A DNA stretch of 27,791 bases, taken from a virus. Lineage: Duplodnaviria > Caudoviricetes. Positions within the stretch are counted from its first letter, which is position 1, and the number at the start of each line of letters is the position of its first letter. The notes under the pieces are model-generated. The model was not told where the DNA came from, did not search any database, and worked only from the letters and a program-made list of their open reading frames with translations. The position numbers and the translations under genes are program-made. Of this stretch, positions 1 through 27,791 are shown piece after piece. Where the stretch lies: positions 1-27,791 of the IMG/VR virus record IMGVR_UViG_3300032225_001008; one strand, written 5' to 3'.

Positions 1-1278
1 CCCGTTTTTAGCGAAAAAACAGGGGTAGACCTTCTCACGCAGGTCGATGCGTGGATCGTTGCGACCCGCGAGCTCGACGGGCAGGCCGAGATGCACGTCC
101 GCCAGGCTGCGCGCTGGGTGCGCGACTGGCTGGAGCACGTCAAGGCGAACGCGCGCGAGATCGGCCCGGGCTCCTGCATCGAGTGGCTGCGCGAAATGAC
201 GCGCGAGGCCACGCTCGCGCCGCAGACCATCCGCAACCGAATGAGCGCATGCAGGCGCTTCGCCGGCTGGCTGCTGATTCAGGGGCTCATCGACTCGAAC
301 CCGTGGGCGCACGTCCCCAGCCCGCGCGGGCGCGCTGGTCAAGGCCGCGATGCATTCACCGACGCCGAGGTCGAGCGCCTGATCGCCCACGCGCGCGAGC
401 AATCGACGAAGGGCGCGTCTCCAGCCATCCGAGCGAGCGCGAGTAACCGAGCGAACCTGTACAGATTCCTGAGTCTCACCGGCCTGCGCCGCGGCGAGGC
501 GCACGCGCAGCTCTGGTCCGACGTGGACCTCGACGCAGGCACCCTCGTGGTCAGCCTGGACAAGGCGCGCCGGCGCGACAACATCCCGCTCGCGAGCGCC
601 GCGGTGGAACTGCTTCGCGAGATGCGCAAGGCGAAGGACGGGCCAAAACTGTTCAAGCGCACCGTTTCCTACAAGGGGCTCGCGACCGATCTGGCGGCTG
701 CAGGGCTCTCCGGGCGCTACGGGTTTCACTCGTTTCGCTGCGGCTACATCACCGAATCCTTTGAGAACGGCACCCCGCCGGAACTGATCCAGCGCCTCGT
801 CCGGCATCGCTCTATCGACCAGACCCACCGATACTTGCGTCACCGTGAGCCCCGCCTGCGGGAGGCGGCCGAGAGCCGCGGCGGAAAAATCTCAAAAAAT
901 TCTCCCCCGAAAACTAGTGCGGTCGATAGGTTGCCCACGCAATCGACTATGGCCTACGGCGCTCCTATCACGGCGAACATGACGATGACCAGCGCGAGCT
1001 TCGCGCCTACGGCCGTCGATTGCACCTCTCGCGCTGGTCTTCGACATGCTCGCAGCCGTTCGGTCCCGTCTGCTAATGAAAAGTGGGCGCTACAGGATTC
1101 GAACCTTCGCCCCCACCTACGGGCTGAACGGCTTCTGGAAGCGGCGCTGATGCTAACGCAAGCGGGCCACAATGAAGGTGCCCTCGTGCTGATGCATCAC
1201 GCCCAGATGCTGCTGACGCAGCAGGGAGCCGGCGATGGAGCAAGCGATGGAACGCCTCCGCTGGGGGCAGGTCGTTGA
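1..1278 (+). CDS. int: Tyrosine recombinase/integrase with long C-terminal extension (5' part continues from 27702..27791 if circular)
   Basis: Catalytic motifs TGLRRGE (R), LDKARR (K), HSFR (HxxR), VRH (H), THRY (Y, nt 832-834). SAM-like N-domain (LAPQTIRNRMSACRRFAGWL). Frame is open from position 1 upstream of ATG 91. Confidence 0.93.
   Translation, partial: PVFSEKTGVDLLTQVDAWIVATRELDGQAEMHVRQAARWVRDWLEHVKANAREIGPGSCIEWLREMTREATLAPQTIRNRMSACRRFAGWLLIQGLIDSNPWAHVPSPRGRAGQGRDAFTDAEVERLIAHAREQSTKGASPAIRASASNRANLYRFLSLTGLRRGEAHAQLWSDVDLDAGTLVVSLDKARRRDNIPLASAAVELLREMRKAKDGPKLFKRTVSYKGLATDLAAAGLSGRYGFHSFRCGYITESFENGTPPELIQRLVRHRSIDQTHRYLRHREPRLREAAESRGGKISKNSPPKTSAVDRLPTQSTMAYGAPITANMTMTSASFAPTAVDCTSRAGLRHARSRSVPSANEKWALQDSNLRPHLRAERLLEAALMLTQAGHNEGALVLMHHAQMLLTQQGAGDGASDGTPPLGAGR
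978..1048. repeat. 21-bp imperfect inverted repeat adjacent to attP core
   Basis: CATGACGATGACCAGCGCGAG (978-998) pairs with CTCGCGCTGGTCTTCGACATG (1028-1048), 2 mismatches, inner 12 bp perfect. Confidence 0.8.
1084..1106 (-). other. attP: attP core: copy of a tRNA 3' end (T-arm + acceptor strand; Val-like)
   Basis: Minus strand reads AGG-TTCGAAT-CCTGT-AGCGCCC-A, i.e. partial T-stem, canonical T-loop, 3' T-stem, acceptor 3' strand and discriminator A. The rest of the tRNA is absent. It lies within the integrase ORF. Confidence 0.85.
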
Positions 1279-1615
1279 AGACTGTGGTTTGGCGGTTCAG
1301 GATCTCCTGAACGCAGGCCGGAGCATGGATGCGATGCGGGTGCGGCTGGTGATGCTGCACAACCTGCATGAAACCATTTCACTGCTGACCGAAACCCACA
1401 AGTCGGGGCGCATCGAGGCGCCGGCGGTGGTCGCTGCGGTCGATGCGATCCTGAACAAGTCGGCGCGCCCGGCGCAGGTGCCGCTGGTCTCTCTGGGCCA
1501 AGGCGACTACCGCCGCGACTACTTCGAGGCCGAGATGGTGAAGGCCGAGGTGAAGAAGTCTGAGGGCCGCAACTGGCTGCGCGAGCTGTGCGCGCGGATT
1601 GGGGGCACCCGATGA
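1235..1615 (+). CDS. Hypothetical protein (126 aa)
   Basis: GGGAG RBS upstream, typical codon usage, stop overlaps next ATG (ATGA). Confidence 0.75.
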   Translation: MEQAMERLRWGQVVEDCGLAVQDLLNAGRSMDAMRVRLVMLHNLHETISLLTETHKSGRIEAPAVVAAVDAILNKSARPAQVPLVSLGQGDYRRDYFEAEMVKAEVKKSEGRNWLRELCARIGGTR

Positions 1616-1761
1616 GCCAGCAGGAAGTCGCCGAGCTGCTCGGCTGCGATCGCAAGACGGTCGCTTACCACGAAAAGAAGGCGCTGCAGAAGATCCGCCT
1701 CGCGATCATGCTGGATCGTGAACTGAAGGCGCTCGCCGCGGAGGCCTGCGATGAAAATTGA
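1612..1761 (+). CDS. 49-aa sigma70 region-4-like HTH protein (not in ORF track)
   Basis: MSQQEVAELLGCDRKTVAYHEKKALQKIRLAIMLDRELKALAAEACDEN resembles the region 4.2 pattern (xxEVAxxLGxxRxTVxxxExKALxKLR). It overlaps both neighbouring genes. Confidence 0.8.
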   Translation: MSQQEVAELLGCDRKTVAYHEKKALQKIRLAIMLDRELKALAAEACDEN

Positions 1762-2605
1762 GCAGCTCCTGCCGAACCGCATCGTCGAGGACATGCCGGC
1801 TGCGGTCTATCACGCCGTGGACGCGCTCGGCTCGAGCACGCTGCGCAAGGTGCTCTCGGCGTCCCCCGCTCACGCGATGGCTGCCATCCGCAACCGCGAG
1901 GAGACCGCCAGCCAGCGGCTCGGCACGGCCCTGCATGCTGCGCTGCTCGAGCCCGCGAAGTTCGAGGCCCAGATCGCCATCGCGCCCGAGTGCGACCGCC
2001 GCACGAAGGACGGGAAGGCTGTCTGGGAGGCGTTCCAGCTGCAGGCCGAAGGCCGCACCGTAATCACCGCCGATCAGGGCGAAGCGCTGGCCGGAATGGT
2101 CGAGGCTGTGAAGGGCTCGAAGGCTGCAGCCGGGCTGCTGCGGATCGCAAACGTGCGCGAGGTGTCGCTGTTCGCCGAGGAACCTATGACGGGCCTGCCG
2201 ATCAAGGCGCGCCTGGACGCATGGGCACCGGGCGACCGCGGCGAGTTCATCGTGGACATCAAGACCACGAGCGGGCTGGCGTCGCGCAGCGAGTTCGAGC
2301 GCACGCTCGCCTCTTACGGCTACGGGGCGCAGGCCGCGTTCTACATGCGCGTGGCGCGTGCTGCCGGGCTGAAGGTGAGCGAGTTCATCTTCATCGCGGT
2401 CGAGACCAGCGACCCCTACGGAGTGGGCTGCTACGCGCTCGACGAGGAGATCGTCGCGCTGTTTGAGCCAGAGGTCGATCGTGCGATCGAGGCGTGGGCC
2501 GTGGCGAAGCGTGATGGTGTGTTCCGGGCCTACCCCGACAAAGTTCAGAAACTGGGCGCTCCCAAGTGGCTGCGCCGTCAACTGGAAGAAGGAGTCGCAG
2601 CATGA
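1751..2605 (+). CDS. RecE/exonuclease VIII-like PD-(D/E)XK nuclease (DUF3799-like)
   Basis: YHA..ALGSSTLRK, GTALHAALLEP, KARLD, IVDIKTT, YGYGAQAAFY motifs. Confidence 0.88.
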   Translation: MKIEQLLPNRIVEDMPAAVYHAVDALGSSTLRKVLSASPAHAMAAIRNREETASQRLGTALHAALLEPAKFEAQIAIAPECDRRTKDGKAVWEAFQLQAEGRTVITADQGEALAGMVEAVKGSKAAAGLLRIANVREVSLFAEEPMTGLPIKARLDAWAPGDRGEFIVDIKTTSGLASRSEFERTLASYGYGAQAAFYMRVARAAGLKVSEFIFIAVETSDPYGVGCYALDEEIVALFEPEVDRAIEAWAVAKRDGVFRAYPDKVQKLGAPKWLRRQLEEGVAA

Positions 2606-2985
2606 GTTTTCAAACTCAGGTTGAGTACGAGCAAGAACTGTCAAAGATTCTTGAGTGCAACAATTGGACCAAAGATGCGCACAAGCATTACTTGGATCTG
2701 TTGAACCGTATTAGCAACGGCGTCTATTTGCCATTGTCTGAATTGGAGGCAAAGGTGTGGAATCATCTTTCAGACGTGCGCGAGGAAAAGATGCCACTCG
2801 TGCGCAAAATGAACACGCGAATAGTTCAAATTATTTGCGGTCCGCACGGTGAGATGGTGGCTCTTGATGATCACTCTCAGCTGTGGAAACGGCATTCCCA
2901 TTCTTGGTTTTATCTAGGTGATGCTCGTCATTCAGACCACATCACTGCTGGAGAGTTTTACCGAATCAGGAGCATGCTCATATGA
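2602..2985 (+). CDS. Hypothetical AT-rich protein (127 aa), likely moron
   Basis: ATG overlaps the exonuclease stop after AAGGAG. Markedly lower GC than the flanks. Confidence 0.7.
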   Translation: MSFQTQVEYEQELSKILECNNWTKDAHKHYLDLLNRISNGVYLPLSELEAKVWNHLSDVREEKMPLVRKMNTRIVQIICGPHGEMVALDDHSQLWKRHSHSWFYLGDARHSDHITAGEFYRIRSMLI

Positions 2986-3779
2986 GCCTGGCAACAATCG
3001 ACACCGAAACGCGCGCGCTGCTGGAGTACGCGATCCCGCGCGGCACTGATATGGACAAGCTCGCGATGCTGCAACTGATGCGCAGCATGGATCTCAACCC
3101 CCTGCGCAAGGAGGTCTACGCGATCCCTTATCAGGGGCGGCTGCAGATCGTGATCGGCGTGGACGGGTGGCGCAAGGCCGCGCACGCGACCGGGCGCTAC
3201 CTGAGCGGCGAAGCGGTCTACGGCGAGGACGAGTGCGGTGTCTTCTGTACCTACACCGTTCTTACGACTGTCGGCGGCCGTTTCTCTGCCACCTGCTGGC
3301 TGAGTGAGTTCAAGGGCGGCAGCCCGCTGTGGAACCGAATGCCGCGCCACATGCTGGCGGTGAAGGCCGAGGTGCACGCCCTGAAGCGCGGGTTCGGATT
3401 GGCTGGACCTACCGAGTGGGATCACGACGAAGGCCGCGAGACCATCGTGGGCGAGCCCCTGCGCGTTGCGCAGGATGACCGGCTTGCCGCGATGAATCGC
3501 CTACTGACATCCAGCGCGGACCTCCCGACGGAGGTGTCCGCGGTGGCTCCCCAGGCAGCGCCGGCGGTGGAGCAGCCGCCGGCGCCTGCTGCGGAGCCGC
3601 TCGAAGTGCTGGCTGAGCAGGTCGCGGAACTGGCCCGCTCACAAGGACAGAAGCGCACCGCGATGCAGGCGCTGGCAGCAGCGAAGAAGAAGGGCAAGGA
3701 CGAAGCAGGCACCCGTGCGGTGCTTGAGGAATGGCATGAGGCACTGAGCAACACCAACAACAAGGAGAACATGAAGTGA
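2982..3779 (+). CDS. bet: Single-strand annealing protein, Bet/RecT family
   Basis: LNPLRKEVYAIPY, IVIGVDGWRKAAH, WNRMPRHMLAVKAEVHALKRGF motifs. Close to the exonuclease gene. Confidence 0.88.
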   Translation: MSLATIDTETRALLEYAIPRGTDMDKLAMLQLMRSMDLNPLRKEVYAIPYQGRLQIVIGVDGWRKAAHATGRYLSGEAVYGEDECGVFCTYTVLTTVGGRFSATCWLSEFKGGSPLWNRMPRHMLAVKAEVHALKRGFGLAGPTEWDHDEGRETIVGEPLRVAQDDRLAAMNRLLTSSADLPTEVSAVAPQAAPAVEQPPAPAAEPLEVLAEQVAELARSQGQKRTAMQALAAAKKKGKDEAGTRAVLEEWHEALSNTNNKENMK

Positions 3780-4249
3780 AGCTGATCTGGAACAGCGGCG
3801 AAGAGAAGGCACGCAAGGAACCCATGACCGTCTCGCAGGAAGTCCTGCCGGCTGGCGAGCACGAGGCCGAGGTCGTGAAGAGCGAGTCGCGGCAGAGCCC
3901 GTTCGACAACGTCAAGACCGCGCAGAACCCGGAAGGCTGGGAGCTGAGTTTGTGGCTCGACGTGCATGTCAATGGGAAGCGCTTTCGCGTGTTCGATGGC
4001 ATCCCCGCCACGCACACCGAGCGCATCACCACCGTGCTTGCATCGGCCGGGCTTCCTGTCCCGTCTGCCGGCATGAAGGACTTCAACGAGGAGGTGCTGC
4101 TGGGCAGGACCGTGCGCATCCGCACCTACCTCAGCAAGACCACGGGCAAGGCGAAGGTGGGCGACTACCTCGCGCCGAAGGCCGTGATCGAAGGCAAGAA
4201 GGCCGGACCCGGCAAGGTGAAGGTCGATGCGTCAGACATTCCGTTCTGA
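3776..4249 (+). CDS. Phage ssDNA-binding protein (DUF669-like) with DIPF tail
   Basis: LPAGEHEAEV N-motif, C-terminal ...ASDIPF, position after the annealase. Confidence 0.7.
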   Translation: MKLIWNSGEEKARKEPMTVSQEVLPAGEHEAEVVKSESRQSPFDNVKTAQNPEGWELSLWLDVHVNGKRFRVFDGIPATHTERITTVLASAGLPVPSAGMKDFNEEVLLGRTVRIRTYLSKTTGKAKVGDYLAPKAVIEGKKAGPGKVKVDASDIPF

Positions 4250-4251
4250 AC

Positions 4252-4290
4252 CCCCGGAAGGCCGGGGCGGTGGCGCAAGCCCCGCCCTGG
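4252..4290 (+). promoter_or_regulatory. Overlapping, mutually exclusive hairpins after the SSB-like gene
   Basis: CCCCGG-AAGG-CCGGGG (4252-4267) vs CCGGGGCGG-T-GGC-GCAA-GCC-CCGCCCTGG (4262-4290, GNRA loop). No U tract. Confidence 0.5.
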
Positions 4291-4384
4291 CTACTTCCCC
4301 AACCGTCGGAGAGATCACCACCTTCTGGCTTGGATTCGCGCCTGCGGCGTTTCTCGCCGGCGCGTGGTGCAAGGAGGTTTTCCT

Positions 4385-4672
4385 GTGGATGATTCCGTGA
4401 CATGCCCGCCGCGAGCGCGGCTACTGCTGAAGGCTGCCGACATTGTCGTCGAGCGTGGACTGCACTATGGGCCGCCGCGCGAACACTTCGAGCGCACCGT
4501 GCGCGCGGCGCTCGCGCTCATGCCTGACCTGTTTGCGCGAACCCCAGAGCCCGAGGACTGGGCGAAATTGATGATCATCGACAAGTTGGCGCGCGACGCC
4601 GAGGTGGCGAAGGAAGACAACGCCATCGACATCGCGGGCTATGCGGCGTGCATGCACGAGGTGCGGGCATGA
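4385..4672 (+). CDS. DUF6378-like protein (all-alpha nucleotide pyrophosphatase-like)
   Basis: A..IV..RG..YG.P..HF, LMIIDKLAR, DNAIDIAGYAAC motifs. AAGGAGG RBS before GTG 4385. Confidence 0.75.
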   Translation: MDDSVTCPPRARLLLKAADIVVERGLHYGPPREHFERTVRAALALMPDLFARTPEPEDWAKLMIIDKLARDAEVAKEDNAIDIAGYAACMHEVRA

Positions 4673-4965
4673 GTGGCACCAACATCATGCAACTTCGACA
4701 GCAGGTGTCGAATTTGCAGGCAAAACTTGATCGGATCATGGAAGGGCTGGAAGGCACCTGCATGACCTGCGAACCAGTCGGGGTTCGCAATCAGCAGATG
4801 ACGCAGGACATCAAGACGCTAAAGGCAGAGCGAAACGTAGCCCGGCGAGAGGTGTGCAGGAGTCGCGCTAGTTGCATTCAGGGCAAGAGCCCTCTGCACA
4901 TTGCCGATGCGCTCGGCTGGGACTGCTTTGCGGATGAAACTGCAGACACATCTGAACATCTGTAG
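4669..4965 (+). CDS. Hypothetical coiled-coil protein with CxxC
   Basis: ATGA overlap with the previous gene, heptad pattern, CMTC. Confidence 0.65.
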   Translation: MSGTNIMQLRQQVSNLQAKLDRIMEGLEGTCMTCEPVGVRNQQMTQDIKTLKAERNVARREVCRSRASCIQGKSPLHIADALGWDCFADETADTSEHL

Positions 4966-4992
4966 CGGATTCAATCCGCCGGCGAGGACGCC

Positions 4993-7038
4993 ATGACCAC
5001 CACCGACACCGCAGCCGCAGCCATCGAGGCCGCGTACCAGCTGCTCGGATTCATCTTCGACGCCGACGACCTGATCGAGTTCCGCACGCTCGGCAAAATT
5101 GTCGGCTCGACCTGGGCGAAGCAGCGCGAAGCCGCGCAGGCCATCGCCAAACTCGCGACGCTGGGGCACGGCGTTCAGGTGTACTTCGGCGCCAACCCGC
5201 GCAAGCGACGCGGCGGCAAGGCCGACGACGTTGCCATCGCTCGCTGCCTGTTTGCAGACTTCGATGGTGGCACCACCGTCGAGCAGGCGCGCATTCGCTG
5301 GAGCGAGGCGTGCATTCCAGAGCCCACCGTGATCGTGATCACGGGCGGCGGGTTGCATGCCTACTGGAAGCTGCAGGAGCCGATGCAAGACTTGGCCCTG
5401 TGGACTCAGCATCAGAAGGCGCTGGCCCGCCGGCTGGGCTCGGACCAGTCGGTGACAGACGCGCCTCGCATCCTTCGTTTGCCTGGCTTCGTGAACTGGA
5501 AGTATCAGCACCAGCCCCTGTGCGTGGTCGATTCATGCGATCCCGACAACGCCTACAGCCTGGACGAGTTTCCCGACCCCACCCAGTTTGTCGAGCCGCC
5601 GGCGGCACCCGTCGAGCCTGAGCCCGTCACCGCGGGCACCCTGAGCGACCTGTCGCGGCGGTTCCTCGAAAGCGGCTACCTGATCCCCGGGCGTGGCCGG
5701 CGGGACACGATCTACACCGTGGCCTGCGACATGCGGGCGCGCCAGTGGAGGCAGGGCGACGCCGAGGCGGCGATCTTGAACCGCGCGCGCGAGCTGGGCC
5801 TGACCGCCGACGACCTGCTCGACTTGCCGCGCCAGATCGGCAACGCCTTCGCGAAGGAGCGCACGCCGATCCTTGGGAGGGCTGAGGAGGCGCAGGTGGT
5901 GCCCCAGCATGGGCCGATCGTTCCGGTGCCTCTCGGGCAACTTGTTCAGCAGCACCAGAAGATGCGGCCCGTGGTGATCGAAGGACTTCTCCGAGAAGGG
6001 GAGGTCATGAACATCGTCAGCTCCCCGAAAATCGGGAAGTCCTGGCTCGTCAACGACCTTGCGATCTGTGTCGCCAGCGGCATGGATTGGCTGGACAAGT
6101 TCAGGGTGGTGCCTGGGCGCGTCCTGATCATCGACAACGAGCTGCACCCAGAGACCACCGCCAACCGCCTGCCGAAGGTCGTGAGCGCGAAGGAAATGAG
6201 CATGGACGTGGTGGGCAACAAGGTGGACGTGCTGAACCTGCGCGGGAAACTAATGAGCTTCGACGACCTTGAGCGGGAACTGATCAAGACCGACCTGATG
6301 AAGTCGGCCGGCTATCGGCTGGTGATCCTCGACGCCTTCTACCGTTTCAACATCGGGCCGAATGCCAACGAGAACGACAACGCCTACATGGCGAAGGTGT
6401 TCAACCAGATCGACAGCTGGGGTGCCGAGCTAGGGTGCGCCTTCGTCTGCGTGCACCACTCGTCAAAAGGAGATCAGAGTCAGAAATCGGTCGTTGACGT
6501 GGGATCTGGCGCCGGAGTGTTCAGCCGTGCGGTGGACGCCCACTTGGTCCTCCGGCGCCACGAGGAGGAGGGGCATGTGTCCGTGGACGCTGCGGTTCGA
6601 TCGTTCCAGCAGTTCGATCCGTTCGTGCTCAGCTTCAACTGGCCCCTGTTCAAGGTCGCCGAAGGTCTCAACCCTGAAGCCCTGTACAAGGCCAACCAGC
6701 AGGCCGCGGAGCCGTTCCCGCCCACCGACATGGTGTCCTACTGCAAGCACGTCTGGGAGCCAGCAGCGACGATCCTGGAGCGCGCCAAGCAGGTCAACAA
6801 GGGCTTCGGTGAGAAGCGCCTGCGAGCCAGCCTTGACGGAGCAGTGGCCGACGGGCTGGTCGAAACCAACGGAGCCAAGACCGCCGGCCGCCGTTACCGC
6901 CGTCTTGGCCCCTGTCTCTGCTTCCCCCGTTGCCAAGATGAAAAGACCCCCGGCAGTGGTTGTCTTGTCTCTCCGCGCCCCCCTAAAGGGGTGCGCGAAG
7001 AGAAAGACAACACAGCCTCTGCCCTAGCCCAGCCATGA
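4993..7038 (+). CDS. Primase-helicase: RepB-type (AEP) primase domain fused to AAA_25/RepA-like helicase
   Basis: CLFADFD, TGGGLHAYW, DAPRILRLPGF primase motifs. Walker A SSPKIGKS, Walker B LVILDAF, VHHSSK, GSGAG..RAVDA. Confidence 0.88.
   Translation: MTTTDTAAAAIEAAYQLLGFIFDADDLIEFRTLGKIVGSTWAKQREAAQAIAKLATLGHGVQVYFGANPRKRRGGKADDVAIARCLFADFDGGTTVEQARIRWSEACIPEPTVIVITGGGLHAYWKLQEPMQDLALWTQHQKALARRLGSDQSVTDAPRILRLPGFVNWKYQHQPLCVVDSCDPDNAYSLDEFPDPTQFVEPPAAPVEPEPVTAGTLSDLSRRFLESGYLIPGRGRRDTIYTVACDMRARQWRQGDAEAAILNRARELGLTADDLLDLPRQIGNAFAKERTPILGRAEEAQVVPQHGPIVPVPLGQLVQQHQKMRPVVIEGLLREGEVMNIVSSPKIGKSWLVNDLAICVASGMDWLDKFRVVPGRVLIIDNELHPETTANRLPKVVSAKEMSMDVVGNKVDVLNLRGKLMSFDDLERELIKTDLMKSAGYRLVILDAFYRFNIGPNANENDNAYMAKVFNQIDSWGAELGCAFVCVHHSSKGDQSQKSVVDVGSGAGVFSRAVDAHLVLRRHEEEGHVSVDAAVRSFQQFDPFVLSFNWPLFKVAEGLNPEALYKANQQAAEPFPPTDMVSYCKHVWEPAATILERAKQVNKGFGEKRLRASLDGAVADGLVETNGAKTAGRRYRRLGPCLCFPRCQDEKTPGSGCLVSPRPPKGVREEKDNTASALAQP
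6959..7011. repeat. Long palindrome centred on CCCC-TAAA-GGGG; candidate replication origin/priming signal
   Basis: 22 paired positions, 2 mismatches, 1 bulge. Lies in the 3' tail of the primase-helicase gene. Confidence 0.6.
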
Positions 7039-14217: not shown

Positions 14218-15243
14218 ATGGAGAAGAAGAACCAACTGGATCGAAATGGCGAGGAGTACCGCGGGCTGTTCCAGCGCTACCTGCAGCACGGCCAAGGCCG
14301 AATGACCGATGCGGAAGTGCGCGCCCTGAGCAACAGCGGCACCGGACTCGGCAACGTCATCGCCCCCACTGGCTGGAGCGATTTCATCGAACTGTCGATG
14401 CGCCAGGACACCATCCTGAGTCGCGTCCGCAAGGTGAACACCGCCGGCAAGTTCACGCAGATCATCAACGTGGCCGACGCGACGGTCAACACCAACCAGA
14501 GCGAGACCAACATCGGCACCGAGGCGTGGACTTCCGGCACGGCGCTCGCACTGCCCCAGCAGGGCTCCGGCGGCAGCACGACCTACACCTTCAGCCTGAA
14601 GAAGATCACCGCTTGGACCAAGGTCACGAACGAGCTGCTGGAGGATTCAACCGCCGCCGCGAGCATCGAGGAGTTCATCCAAGCAGAACTGGTTGCCGAA
14701 CTGATCACGCAGATCAACTCGCAGATCCTGATCGGCGACGGCAGCACCGGATGCCAGGGCGCGTTCAACTCGGCCAAGGCATATAGCCGCACCGCCAGCA
14801 CCGGCGTGGCGACGACCAACAAGCCCAGCGACATCCTTGCCGCAGCCTGGGCATCGACGAACAGCGCGCAGTCGCCGCTGGCATTTGAGTCGTGGAAGAA
14901 CTCGGTCGCGGTCATCAACAGCCGCCTGACCGGATCGTTCGACAGCACCTTCTTCCCGCCACTGTTCCCGTTGTTTGCCGGAAACATGGAGACCGGGACA
15001 TCTGTCGAAGGTCTGCCCACCATCTACCACCGCCTGTCCGCCACCACCCCGACAACCGGCGACACGCTCGTGATGTTCTTCGACCCCAGCAAGTACCTGC
15101 TGGCGACTTCGATGCGCGACTTTACCGTCACGCGTCTGACCGAAACTTTTGCAGCAAACGACCAAACGGCATTCGTCGCCAGCGTGCGAGCGGACGGTTG
15201 CCTGCTTCACACCACTGGCGTGCTCAACGTGAACCGCGCCTGA
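14218..15243 (+). CDS. HK97-fold capsid protein paralog A (short N-terminus, 341 aa)
   Basis: RALSNSGTGLGNVIAPT, KKITAWTKVTNELLEDS, ILIGDG, FAANDQTAFVASVRADG. Confidence 0.85.
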   Translation: MEKKNQLDRNGEEYRGLFQRYLQHGQGRMTDAEVRALSNSGTGLGNVIAPTGWSDFIELSMRQDTILSRVRKVNTAGKFTQIINVADATVNTNQSETNIGTEAWTSGTALALPQQGSGGSTTYTFSLKKITAWTKVTNELLEDSTAAASIEEFIQAELVAELITQINSQILIGDGSTGCQGAFNSAKAYSRTASTGVATTNKPSDILAAAWASTNSAQSPLAFESWKNSVAVINSRLTGSFDSTFFPPLFPLFAGNMETGTSVEGLPTIYHRLSATTPTTGDTLVMFFDPSKYLLATSMRDFTVTRLTETFAANDQTAFVASVRADGCLLHTTGVLNVNRA

Positions 15244-15268: not shown

Positions 15269-16576
15269 ATGAAGAACTACAAGGAACTGCGCGAGGGCAA
15301 CGACGCCCGCTATCGCGCCATGCAGGAAATGATCGAGGCGGCAAACGCGAACGGCGGCGACATGACCGCCGACGACACCGCCAAGTTCGACGCGCTGAGC
15401 GCCGAGTATCGCAAGGTGCAGCAGCAGATCGAGCGCAACCACGCGCTGATGGGCTTGGCTGCGAAGGACAAGGACGCGGGCTTCATTGATGTCGGCCCGG
15501 ACGCGCCCGAAGTTCGTCGCGCTCCCGCTGCTCGCGAGACCGCGCAGCGCGCCCCGCGCTTCGGCGACTTTCGCTGCAGCGACGAGTTCATGCGCGCCTA
15601 CGAGACCTACCTCAAGCGCGGCGAACACACCCCGATGACCGAAATGCGCGCTCTCTCTGAGGGTGGCACGGGCCTCGGCGACATCGTTGCCCCGACTGAG
15701 TTCCAGAGCCGCATGGCCGAATTGCTGCAGAAGGTGGTGACCCTGCGCAAGATCGCGACTGTGATGCCGCTGGGCTCGTGGAAGCGCGACATCGCGATCG
15801 AAAGCGCCCTTGCGAGCGTCAACTGGACGACCGAAGGTTCCTCAATCACCGACTCGCTGGCGACCAACCCAACGTACAGCAACGTGGTCCTGCAGCCCAA
15901 GAAGCTCGCCGGCCGCGCCGTTGTCAGCCGCGAACTGATCGACGATGCCCCCGCTCGCGGCCCTGGCTTCTCGATCGAGAACGTGATCACGAACAGCTTC
16001 GCGAAGGCGTTTGCGCAGACCGAAGAGGACGGCATGCTGAACGGCACCGGCTCGTCCGGACAGCCCACGGGCATCCTGACCATCGCTTCCAGCGGGCCGG
16101 GCATCGGAAAGCAGCTCAACGCAAACACTGCAGTTACTGGCGCAGAAGTGATCGACTGGGTGTACAGCCTCGGCCGCGAGTATCGCCAGCATCCCAGCGC
16201 TGCGATCCTGCTGTCCGATACGGCCCTCGGATACATCCGCAAGGCCGGCACCGCTGGCGGCACCGTCAGCTACTTCTGGCAGCCGTCAAGCGTGCTCGGC
16301 GAGCCCGATCGCATCCTGGGCATCCCGGTGTACGCCTCGGCCTACGTCCCCGCCCCAGCCACCTCGTCGCAGGGCTTTGCCAGCGGCGGCGGCATCTGCG
16401 GCATGATCGGTGCATTCGACTACTGCGTCATCGGCGAGCGCTCCGGCTACAGCCTGCGCGTGCTGAATGAGCTGTATGCCCAGAATGACCAGGTCGGATT
16501 TGTGTGTACGAACAGGGTGGACGTGAAGCTGACGAACATGTCGGCGTTCAAGTACCTGAAGGGATCGGCCGCCTAA
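15269..16576 (+). CDS. Major capsid protein, HK97 family (paralog B, with delta domain, 435 aa)
   Basis: Coiled-coil N-terminus, RALSEGGTGLGDIVAPT, KKLAG..VSRELIDD, LNGTGSSGQPTGIL, ILGIPV, YAQNDQVGF. GAAAGGA RBS. Confidence 0.95.
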   Translation: MKNYKELREGNDARYRAMQEMIEAANANGGDMTADDTAKFDALSAEYRKVQQQIERNHALMGLAAKDKDAGFIDVGPDAPEVRRAPAARETAQRAPRFGDFRCSDEFMRAYETYLKRGEHTPMTEMRALSEGGTGLGDIVAPTEFQSRMAELLQKVVTLRKIATVMPLGSWKRDIAIESALASVNWTTEGSSITDSLATNPTYSNVVLQPKKLAGRAVVSRELIDDAPARGPGFSIENVITNSFAKAFAQTEEDGMLNGTGSSGQPTGILTIASSGPGIGKQLNANTAVTGAEVIDWVYSLGREYRQHPSAAILLSDTALGYIRKAGTAGGTVSYFWQPSSVLGEPDRILGIPVYASAYVPAPATSSQGFASGGGICGMIGAFDYCVIGERSGYSLRVLNELYAQNDQVGFVCTNRVDVKLTNMSAFKYLKGSAA

Positions 16577-25548: not shown

Positions 25549-26844
25549 GTGAGCATGATGCAGGCGGGGTGCTGCTGCGCCGTGCTGTCTGGCTGTGACG
25601 TGTGCGACCTTCGCTGGCGGTGCGATTGCAACTGCCAGCGCGAGAAGATCGTGCCTATCCAGCCAGGCTCGCGCATCACCGTCGCGCTCAACGTAACGAC
25701 AAACAGATCGTGGGCGCTGTCTGGTGGCGGCACATGTTCATGCAGCATCAGCCTAGTAGTTCCCACCGTAACGCTTACGCTGGTCTGCGATGCTGACGGC
25801 GGCGCATGGTGGATCTCATCCTCAACCGTGTCCGTCAGTATGCCTATCGCAGACCCTAGCGGAACGGGCTGTAGCGCATCGACTTGCTGCGCTACGACGA
25901 TGATGAACTGCACCGTCGCCATCCGAGCCAACTGCTGGCTGAACACCGTCACTCAGGTGGCTCTCATTCCGAGTTCAGCTCATAACGCAGCAATTGCAAA
26001 CTCGCAGGCGTGCGTCGCGTACTACCAGTCGCTGACGTTGCAGGGTTCCACGCGGAACGCCTACAAGTTCAGCGCAACCCTGTCGGGCTTTGCCGCATCA
26101 TCAGCCTCGTGCCTGTACCTGTGGCAACTGAGTGGCACTGCGACGGTTTCTGGATCGACTACAAGTAATCAGAACACGGACACTACGGGCACCATTACCT
26201 ACGGCCCAATCGTTCCGGCATATGACTGGACGCCGGCGGCGCTGGGTCTGACGGCATCATCGACAGCGGAAGAGCGCTACAACGTCGCGTACAAGTACAC
26301 CGACTGGTGCAGCACTGGCACCTATTGGATTCGATACCAATGGTTCAATGATTCTTTGAGCCACGAGGGTGAATGCTTTTGTCCTGAAACATCACCCGGT
26401 CCTTGTGACGGGCGCGTCGTGAGATATGAGCAGATTCTGTCCCTTGACGGCGGCAACCCTAGCGTGGCGTGCGGGTGCAATCAGCAGGAGTTTGGTCCGG
26501 CTGCTCTTGATAATTGCGGCACGATCACCATCACTGGCTCGGGTGCTTCTGGCACGCGCACCTGGTCATGCCTGCAGGTGAAGGACTATTACATCCCTGG
26601 CTTTGCTGCAACATCGACAGCACACAGCGCAGGCTCTGCGTACATGCAGTACACCGCTGGACAGCCTGCGGTTTTGTACTTCTCAGGAGCCAGTGCAAGC
26701 AAGATTCACAACGTGACGTATCAGTGTTTGCCGTGCTACCCGACTGAGCCGCCGTGCGATTGCGGAAACCTTGAGTGCGAAGAGTCGTCCGAATCGTTCA
26801 CGCTCATCGGTTCTGCCGAGATCACATGGGTGCGCTGCACATGA
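25549..26844 (+). CDS. Cysteine-rich beta protein (32 Cys/431 aa), candidate receptor-binding protein
   Basis: N-terminal GCCC..C..C.....C.C.C, Ser/Thr-rich body, lower GC than the core genes. Confidence 0.7.
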   Translation: MSMMQAGCCCAVLSGCDVCDLRWRCDCNCQREKIVPIQPGSRITVALNVTTNRSWALSGGGTCSCSISLVVPTVTLTLVCDADGGAWWISSSTVSVSMPIADPSGTGCSASTCCATTMMNCTVAIRANCWLNTVTQVALIPSSAHNAAIANSQACVAYYQSLTLQGSTRNAYKFSATLSGFAASSASCLYLWQLSGTATVSGSTTSNQNTDTTGTITYGPIVPAYDWTPAALGLTASSTAEERYNVAYKYTDWCSTGTYWIRYQWFNDSLSHEGECFCPETSPGPCDGRVVRYEQILSLDGGNPSVACGCNQQEFGPAALDNCGTITITGSGASGTRTWSCLQVKDYYIPGFAATSTAHSAGSAYMQYTAGQPAVLYFSGASASKIHNVTYQCLPCYPTEPPCDCGNLECEESSESFTLIGSAEITWVRCT

Positions 26845-27293
26845 CACCAGAGGACGAGGCATTCTCGAAGCGCGTGCAGCAATACATCCGAGCCGAGAAT
26901 CCGAACGCCGAGCAGCCCATCGGCACCAGCATCACCTACGGCTTCATGGATCGCGCGAAGGCGTACTTGGCGGCCGAGGCGCGGCACGCCGCGCAAGGCC
27001 CGGCGAGCGTCCAAGTGCAGGCCGAGCGCGCGGCTATTTGCCGAGCGTGCGACGGCCGCGCCGACGAGATGGAAGGCAAGGCAGACCCCGGCGGCGTGGG
27101 CTTCTGCACCAAGTGCGGATGCACCAGCAAGCGCGCCGCGCTGTCCGTGAAGCTGACGCTGGCCGGCGCCACCTGCCCGCTCGCACGGTGGCAGCCAGTG
27201 ACGGGCGAAGGCGGCAGCGTCGCCACTGCGATCGAAGCGATCGGTGGCGTGGCCGGGACGGTCGCGGACCAGGTGAAGCGGCTGCTGAGTTAG
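26841..27293 (+). CDS. Cys-cluster protein (DUF6171-like)
   Basis: ERAAICRAC...FCTKCGC...K......CPLARW pattern. ATGA overlap. Confidence 0.7.
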   Translation: MTPEDEAFSKRVQQYIRAENPNAEQPIGTSITYGFMDRAKAYLAAEARHAAQGPASVQVQAERAAICRACDGRADEMEGKADPGGVGFCTKCGCTSKRAALSVKLTLAGATCPLARWQPVTGEGGSVATAIEAIGGVAGTVADQVKRLLS

Positions 27294-27553
27294 CCCGGCT
27301 TGATCATCATGATCATCACGACGAGGAAGACGAAGACGCCCACGACAAAGGCGATGGCCTTCATGTTGCGCTTCTGATTCTGTCGCCGTGCTTCCGCATC
27401 TTCGGCCGCCTGCAGCTGCATGTGGCGGTGGAGTTTCTCGCGCTCCTGGCGTTCTTTCTCTTCGCGCTGAACCTGCACGCGCACCTGTTCTTGCGCGCGG
27501 ATCTTGCGCACCTCGTCGGGACTCAGACCACCGTCTTCTTGCACTGTCGCCAT
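27290..27553 (-). CDS. 87-aa coiled-coil protein with C-terminal TM anchor; only minus-strand gene
   Basis: GGAGGAG RBS before ATG 27553. MATVQEDGG...charged helix...AIAFVVGVFVFLVVMIMMI. Confidence 0.75.
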   Translation of the reverse strand: MATVQEDGGLSPDEVRKIRAQEQVRVQVQREEKERQEREKLHRHMQLQAAEDAEARRQNQKRNMKAIAFVVGVFVFLVVMIMMIKPG

Positions 27554-27701: not shown

Positions 27702-27791
27702 ATGCGCGTCCGGGTGACGTTCGAGTTCGATCTGGGTGGTACTGTGGCCTCGGAGCCATGCTTGGAGATACCCCGTGTCATCCCCCCCCCC
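27702..27791 (+). CDS. int: Probable 5' end of integrase (30 codons, ends in poly-C, joins position 1 in frame)
   Basis: ATG 27702 MRVRVTFEFDLGGTVASEPCLEIPRVIPPP is exactly 90 nt to the window end and continues PVFSEKTG... at position 1. Confidence 0.6.
   Translation, partial: MRVRVTFEFDLGGTVASEPCLEIPRVIPPP

Follow-up and report, generated by a model that had tools for sequence, protein, structure and literature searches.

A predicted attachment site inside a phage integrase gene and the probable loss of the integrase tail on integration

The tyrosine integrase gene (int) of a temperate phage carries the 3′ half of a tRNA gene in its own 3′ part. Judged from the sequence, it is probable that the phage attachment site (attP) lies within int and that the integrase loses its C-terminal tail on integration. 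Recombination with the host tRNA gene would replace the last 56 residues by an immediate or nearby stop codon supplied by that tRNA, so that the free phage would make a long Int and the prophage a shorter, catalytically intact one. By analogy with phage Mx8, the tail would favor integration or raise activity, and the short form may have lower or differently directed activity, which is the least certain part of this reading. Loss of the tail would then stabilize the prophage in a system where the integrase has no recognized arm-binding domain or Xis.

Integrase gene and its tRNA-like core

The window, meaning the whole stretch of DNA analyzed here (27,791 nt), is the complete phage record IMGVR_UViG_3300032225_001008. 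It encodes terminase, portal, capsid and tail genes, and the record appears to be circular. The frame at 1–1278 is open throughout, as the first-pass annotation had described, but the gene does not begin there: its start codon is ATG 27702, from which the frame passes through a poly-C tract and on into base 1, giving an Int of 455 aa. The parts of int that bear on the main finding are as follows.

27702–27791, plus strand: 5′ end of int, 30 codons, the last of them in the poly-C tract that runs across the junction to base 1; full-length homologs have the same N-termini
1–873, plus strand: integrase core-binding and catalytic domains (Pfam PF00589, E 4e-15; PF02899 below cut-off)
1084–1106, minus strand: predicted attP core, corresponding to the T-arm and acceptor strand that form the 3′ half of a tRNA-Val, with the Val(GAC) identity taken from longer fragments in L060 and L091
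1111–1227, plus strand: helical hairpin of the tail (residues 371–409, AlphaFold), the piece predicted to be lost on integration

Int retains the R-K-H-R-H-Y residues of a tyrosine recombinase (R163, K188, H243, R246, H269 and Y278, counted from window base 1). Its best Foldseek match is XerA (E 1.8e-10), with Brujita Int at rank 9, and no N-terminal arm-binding domain is recognized in it. The AlphaFold model displays a two-domain recombinase followed by about 90 disordered residues and then the helical hairpin, where pLDDT is 68–81 by block. The frame stays open for 147 codons after Tyr278, close to the earlier count of about 148.

The 23-nt core is, in reverse complement, the T-arm and acceptor 3′ strand of a tRNA, and the int frame reads it as W-A-L-Q-D-S-N-L, which confirms the initial reading of the sequence. 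It begins 83 codons downstream of the catalytic Tyr278 and lies 56 codons ahead of the int stop; cutting Int after the Leu of the core (residue 369 of 425) removes 56 residues. A 20-nt core pattern matches 24 of 2.9 million viral contigs, 22 from this phage family and two from other phages (L060 and L091) in which the core sequence runs on into a Val(GAC) anticodon loop. Given this rarity, the presence of the core in int is not due to chance. Among relatives, five core types occupy one position, and each is in frame; two of them resemble tRNA-Val, two tRNA-Pro and one tRNA-Leu. They are read in three frames, the two Val-like cores using different ones, and they track the integrase tree with six changes, the smallest number possible. 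The clade c core lies in full tRNA-Pro genes in 19 of 24 viral matches, and the clade d and clade e cores are, we assume, of Pro and Leu type, respectively. No 9-nt arm-type repeat is common to both sides of the core. We infer that the core is the att site and the point of crossover. The earlier proposal that attP lies within the int ORF is thus supported by a selected frame, five tRNA cores at one place and two relatives that stop at the core (see below).

In clade c (L025–L037 and L057–L059), a second hairpin adjoins the core just before it, and several of these loci are then U-rich on the tRNA strand; the hairpin is likely a terminator for the restored tRNA. The poly-C tract in the 5′ end of int (27779–27791 and 1–3 in the window) is 12–22 nt long in clades a and b. 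Of the 11 loci where it could be measured (the window, L001, L005–L007, L012, L014, L016, L020, L021 and L023), 4 have it in frame and 7 have int out of frame, and many contigs break at the tract. Either the integrase is phase-variable or the homopolymer was misassembled.

Int opens a run of early genes on one strand:

1235–1615, plus strand: conserved gene of no assigned function, present in 50 of 59 loci by tblastn and without a match in Pfam, PHROG or Atlas
1612–1761, plus strand: small HTH gene, 49 aa, Sigma70_r4-like below cut-off, an Xis/Cro candidate
1751–7038, plus strand: early genes 3′ of att, encoding exonuclease VIII-like, RecT-like and primase-helicase proteins (Pfam, PHROG)

The 49-aa HTH gene falls below every Pfam cut-off, so the earlier remark that no Xis is recognizable holds only loosely. 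No cI-type repressor is recognized among 35 ORFs scanned in Pfam. Upstream of int, a small divergent gene (27290–27553, minus strand) encodes a hydrophobic C-terminus, varies among relatives and is not recognized as an excisionase; as a candidate for superinfection exclusion, it would remain part of the prophage. Elsewhere in the genome, the tandem genes 14218–15243 and 15269–16576 both match the major head protein family phrog_10, and a late gene at 25549–26844 encodes a cysteine-rich protein of 431 aa with no Pfam or PHROG match.

Predicted junction and search for the integrated form

With a host U47, the window junction reads AAC CTG TGA, as in L060 and the clade b attP sites, which retain host-like letters at the predicted junction. 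The two outside Val fragments (n = 2) differ at this position: L060 has U47, and L091 has C47, with which the junction would read TGG and a short tRNA-derived extension would be added instead. An immediate TGA at the window’s own junction is therefore likely. In clades c and d, identity between phage and tRNA extends to C56 and is lost at U55, the base that would complete a TGA. U54-U55-C56 is invariant in tRNAs, so the host side must read ATT TGA in these clades (Pro-type).

Two relatives end where such a junction would place the stop. P0118, a protein of 384 aa with a full N-terminus from a 20-kb contig, has as its last residue the Ile of the predicted ATT TGA junction, and differs from the full-length P0124 at 2 of 384 residues. 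P0321, from another clade, is 370 aa long, shares 58% identity with its nearest relative and ends at the matching motif. Both are known as proteins, and because TGC to TGA is a single change, each may instead reflect a point mutation or a contig edge. The prediction that the tail is lost on integration gains support from these two relatives, which stop exactly at the core, while the exact TGA foreseen for the window itself is only likely, given the TGG of L091.

The proposed check for attB and integrated relatives in metagenomes and MAGs yielded no junction DNA and no host match. Patterns for Val-type and Pro-type attL junctions gave zero matches in JGI metagenomes. The 1 and 24 viral matches to the junction patterns include no member of the family; the viral scans as a whole brought up attP forms of the family, tRNA genes or att pieces belonging to other phages, and a single match of no relevance. 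In eight runs, no contig has a loose end of host type at the core, and contig ends at 1105–1106 in four runs are caused by a 3-nt strain variant at 1074. The core is found in 0 of 401 genomes in each of two phyla and has no exact match in plasmids. Matches in GTDB consist of three contigs of 2.8–14 kb in MAGs labeled Rhodobacteraceae, Clavibacter and Pseudomonadota, which are probably misbinned. Our guess for the host phylum is Planctomycetota, from the bin label of P0253 and weak Phycisphaerales matches.

Selection on the tail and competing explanations

Searches for family homologs (8000 scored candidates each) yielded 45 and then 87 clusters at 90% identity, so that the family comprises at least 87 clusters. 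Nearly all family proteins with the catalytic motif (297 of 300) extend at least 135 residues beyond the Tyr; two of the three shorter ones come from contigs of about 1 kb, and only one of the 300 ends at the core. From the substitutions observed along minimum spanning trees of 45 distinct DNA loci, 16.0 stops are expected in linker 1, 10.0 in linker 2 and 9.1 in the helices (about 35), and none is seen, a zero that is partly conditioned because these loci were chosen for a closed frame open through the core. The other loci with a stop (n = 6) comprise four duplicates, the broken L017 and L038, which is open with the fifth core type. In L017 (1000–1064), a frameshift halts int just before the core, making it a natural tail-less mutant or an assembly error. 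Indels in the 45 loci are multiples of three in 26 of 28 cases, and each of the other two frames carries a stop in 45 of 45 loci.

At the protein level, dN/dS is 0.08–0.21 in the catalytic domain and about 1 in linker 2 of clades a–c. In the tail helices it is 0.26, 0.34, 0.92 and 0.53 in clades a, b, c and d, respectively, with intervals below 1 in a and b, so protein-level selection on the helices is clear only in these two clades. The pattern of substitutions and indels indicates that the open tail frame is under selection, which bears on the earlier proposal to check homologs for a conserved tail and reading frame through att. The tail was also rightly seen as helical coding sequence ending in the ribosome-binding site (RBS) of the next gene: it is predicted to form a two-helix hairpin, and both GGGAG (1224–1228) and the ATG of the next gene (1235) lie inside it, with the int stop 44 nt into that gene. 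Int C-termini in the family sit in this overlap and differ in length and sequence. A degradation tag on the removed piece was considered and rejected, as the C-termini are not conserved.

Three further elements are nested within the int frame ahead of or across the core:

874–948, plus strand: linker 1, open in-frame codons with a GATAGGTT motif conserved at the DNA level at 925–932
949–1278, plus strand: candidate nested in-frame ORF of 109 aa with a conserved ATG/GTG start
973–1053, plus strand: long imperfect hairpin of 81 nt inside the int frame, with 26-nt arms, conserved and covarying

In all 34 clade a–c loci, the spacing between ATG 949 and an invariant GATAG is constant. A motif search in clade d locates a corresponding GTG in all 11 loci, behind a TTGACA-17-TCTnnT layout; in clades d and e the arrangement is TTGACA-17-TCTnnT-6-GTG, with TTGACA-17-TCTnnT at the place that matches the GATAGGTT motif. 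The linker 1 motif is possibly an internal promoter or a recombination arm site. A sigma-70 scan finds no site in the window, and since this includes the region upstream of int, it is uninformative on an internal promoter. A TAGGTT lies 7 nt upstream of the int start. The 949 ORF has no stand-alone homolog among proteins of 59–191 aa and no Atlas match, and Pfam and PHROG give no HTH or other family match that would mark it as a repressor.

The hairpin at 973–1053 is the longest inverted repeat in the genome among those with arms within 150 nt, and it holds a conserved 1×1 pyrimidine mismatch. Across 18 selected clade a–c sequences, 11 of 22 pairs have changed on both sides; for clade d, with 9 selected sequences, the figure is 9 of 31. 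In each case, 0 of 500 shuffles score as high, and slid controls are far lower. The strand signal is mixed, with G-U pairs in clade d favoring the sense strand (19 G-U, 9 A-C), but clade a and the folding energies of the window favoring the antisense strand. No Rfam family reaches threshold. The hairpin may be a new cis-regulatory RNA. It resembles an RNase III site and may be one, or its role could lie after integration, in acting on read-through from the tRNA. One contig from an RNA library covers 977–1230 at a depth of 5; it may be DNA and carries no evidential weight.

The same signature recurs in distant integrases. A profile search of 1.84 billion representatives yielded 150 proteins, 147 of them new and 130 with a recognizable catalytic motif. 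With peptide patterns and thresholds set post hoc on protein sequence only, an antisense-tRNA-like peptide lies more than 25 residues after the catalytic motif in 50 of the 130; shuffled sequences give 5.2 on average and at most 11 (200 shuffles). It lies 45–130 residues after the Tyr (median 94) in 49 proteins. Of these, 21 reach their stop within the next 20 residues, many of them still reading tRNA antisense, whereas a hydrophobic tail follows in 15 and some other long tail in 13.

Three other explanations, which do not exclude one another, bear on these data. A nested 109-residue protein started at ATG 949 from its own promoter could be the selected unit; it would span attP and be destroyed by integration, comparably to the split repressor gene of BPs, with read-through secondary. 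All 45 loci have an ATG or a GTG at this position, with a switch from ATG to GTG between clades, the promoter-like spacing in clades d and e and the GATAG of clades a–c accompany it, and the Mx8 int linker also holds an in-frame ATG with a strong RBS. We nevertheless consider this improbable as the main account: linker 1, upstream of the nested start, is equally stop-free (16 expected, 0 seen), which means that full read-through is selected too, the first 44 codons of the 949 ORF have a dN/dS of about 1 in clades a–c, and the searches for a homolog or sigma-70 site were blank. The internal ORF, raised earlier as an alternative to a long Int, gains from its conserved start but probably exists alongside read-through rather than in its place. 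A likewise unlikely account is translational coupling and protection from polarity: the open frame would serve solely to bring ribosomes past att into the next gene, the tail would have no role as a protein, and losing it would be a by-product of interrupting the operon. The tail does end in that gene’s RBS, int stops 32–143 nt inside it across clades a–c, the C-termini vary freely and dN/dS is near 1 in linker 2 and the clade c helices; yet the helices of clades a and b are constrained, 15 distant integrases have a hydrophobic tail after the core, and the int stop does not sit at the next start, as tight coupling would favor.

That the core is no working attP, and the open frame a relic in lytic phages, would agree with the lack of an integrated copy in the DNA scans, of a cI-type repressor and of an in-frame int at most measurable poly-C tracts. 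The constrained catalytic domain, five intact tRNA cores and two proteins ending at the predicted junction make it highly improbable. We therefore favor an attP within int whose use removes the tail. A broader version of this reading is speculative and, taken whole, rather doubtful: integration would be the lysis-lysogeny switch of a repressor-less phage, with attP in the first gene of a single early operon. Insertion would separate the genes for recombination and replication from the two promoters upstream and from the RNase III-like hairpin, and would remove the helical tail, which, also made alone from the nested start, would be a built-in directionality factor for an arm-less integrase; attP-in-int would be a widespread class, seen in both states in metagenomes.

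The attP-in-int layout is a fixed state of this freshwater family, and the frame has outlived several changes of tRNA target. P0124 and P0118 offer a natural long/short integrase pair for directionality set by a tail without Xis, and the arrangement is possibly a minimal genetic switch. Integrases of this class that were annotated from prophages are probably truncated, which matters for integrase mining.

Comparison with known systems

The closest precedent is the integrase of Myxococcus phage Mx8, whose attP lies in the 3′ coding sequence; integration exchanges 112 residues for 13 and leaves a less active enzyme (PMC6070905, PMC4701971, PMC4383910). Mx8, and Mx9 as well, shares with the window a tyrosine integrase and, as predicted for the window, an attP in the 3′ part of int. 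For a changed C-terminus in the integrated form, the window family offers two proteins that end at the predicted junction, while the scans for junction DNA found none. The Mx8 int sequence shows the window’s order of Tyr, linker, antisense-tRNA-like core and tail, and in both the core lies within int, 3′ of the catalytic Tyr, with the frame open beyond it. The in-frame ATG with a strong RBS ahead of the Mx8 core (L085:6334–6351) hints that a nested start may be general. Mx8 Int is, however, no close homolog of the window Int (best segment 28% over 78 aa, E 0.004). In Mx8, genes annotated as an excisionase (uoi) and a repressor (imm) lie upstream, whereas neither is recognized in the window, where int heads an early operon; and the window family differs in its five tRNA cores read in three frames, its covarying hairpin and its conserved nested start. 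The first-pass annotation overrated the novelty of the arrangement by missing the Mx8 precedent.

In the mycobacteriophages BPs and Brujita, a phage protein loses part of its C-terminus on integration, and Int works without an RDF (PMC3694055). There attP splits the repressor gene and a degradation tag is lost, whereas in the window int is split, attP lies in no repressor gene and no C-terminal degradation tag is conserved. Archaeal suicidal integrases of the SSV1/pTN3 type also carry att inside int (PMC8371274). Their gene is divided into int(N) and int(C), the latter holding the catalytic domain, unlike the window, where the core starts 83 codons after Tyr278 and the int side keeps both domains. 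Streptococcal ICE integrases in rumA, whose integration exchanges the 3′ end of the integrase gene (PMC4701971), differ in being serine recombinases with a protein-gene target. An attP within int is described as rare among bacterial elements, in the words “very few integrative elements” (PMC4701971). A literature search, mainly over the main texts of open-access papers, returned no description of the present integrase family.

Since the defining features of the BPs and SSV1 types are absent and Mx8 is not a close relative, the window appears to work like Mx8 without belonging to its lineage. The principle is already known from Mx8; what is new is an unrelated, arm-less integrase, the 949 start, the covarying hairpin, the operon position and the signature in distant integrases.
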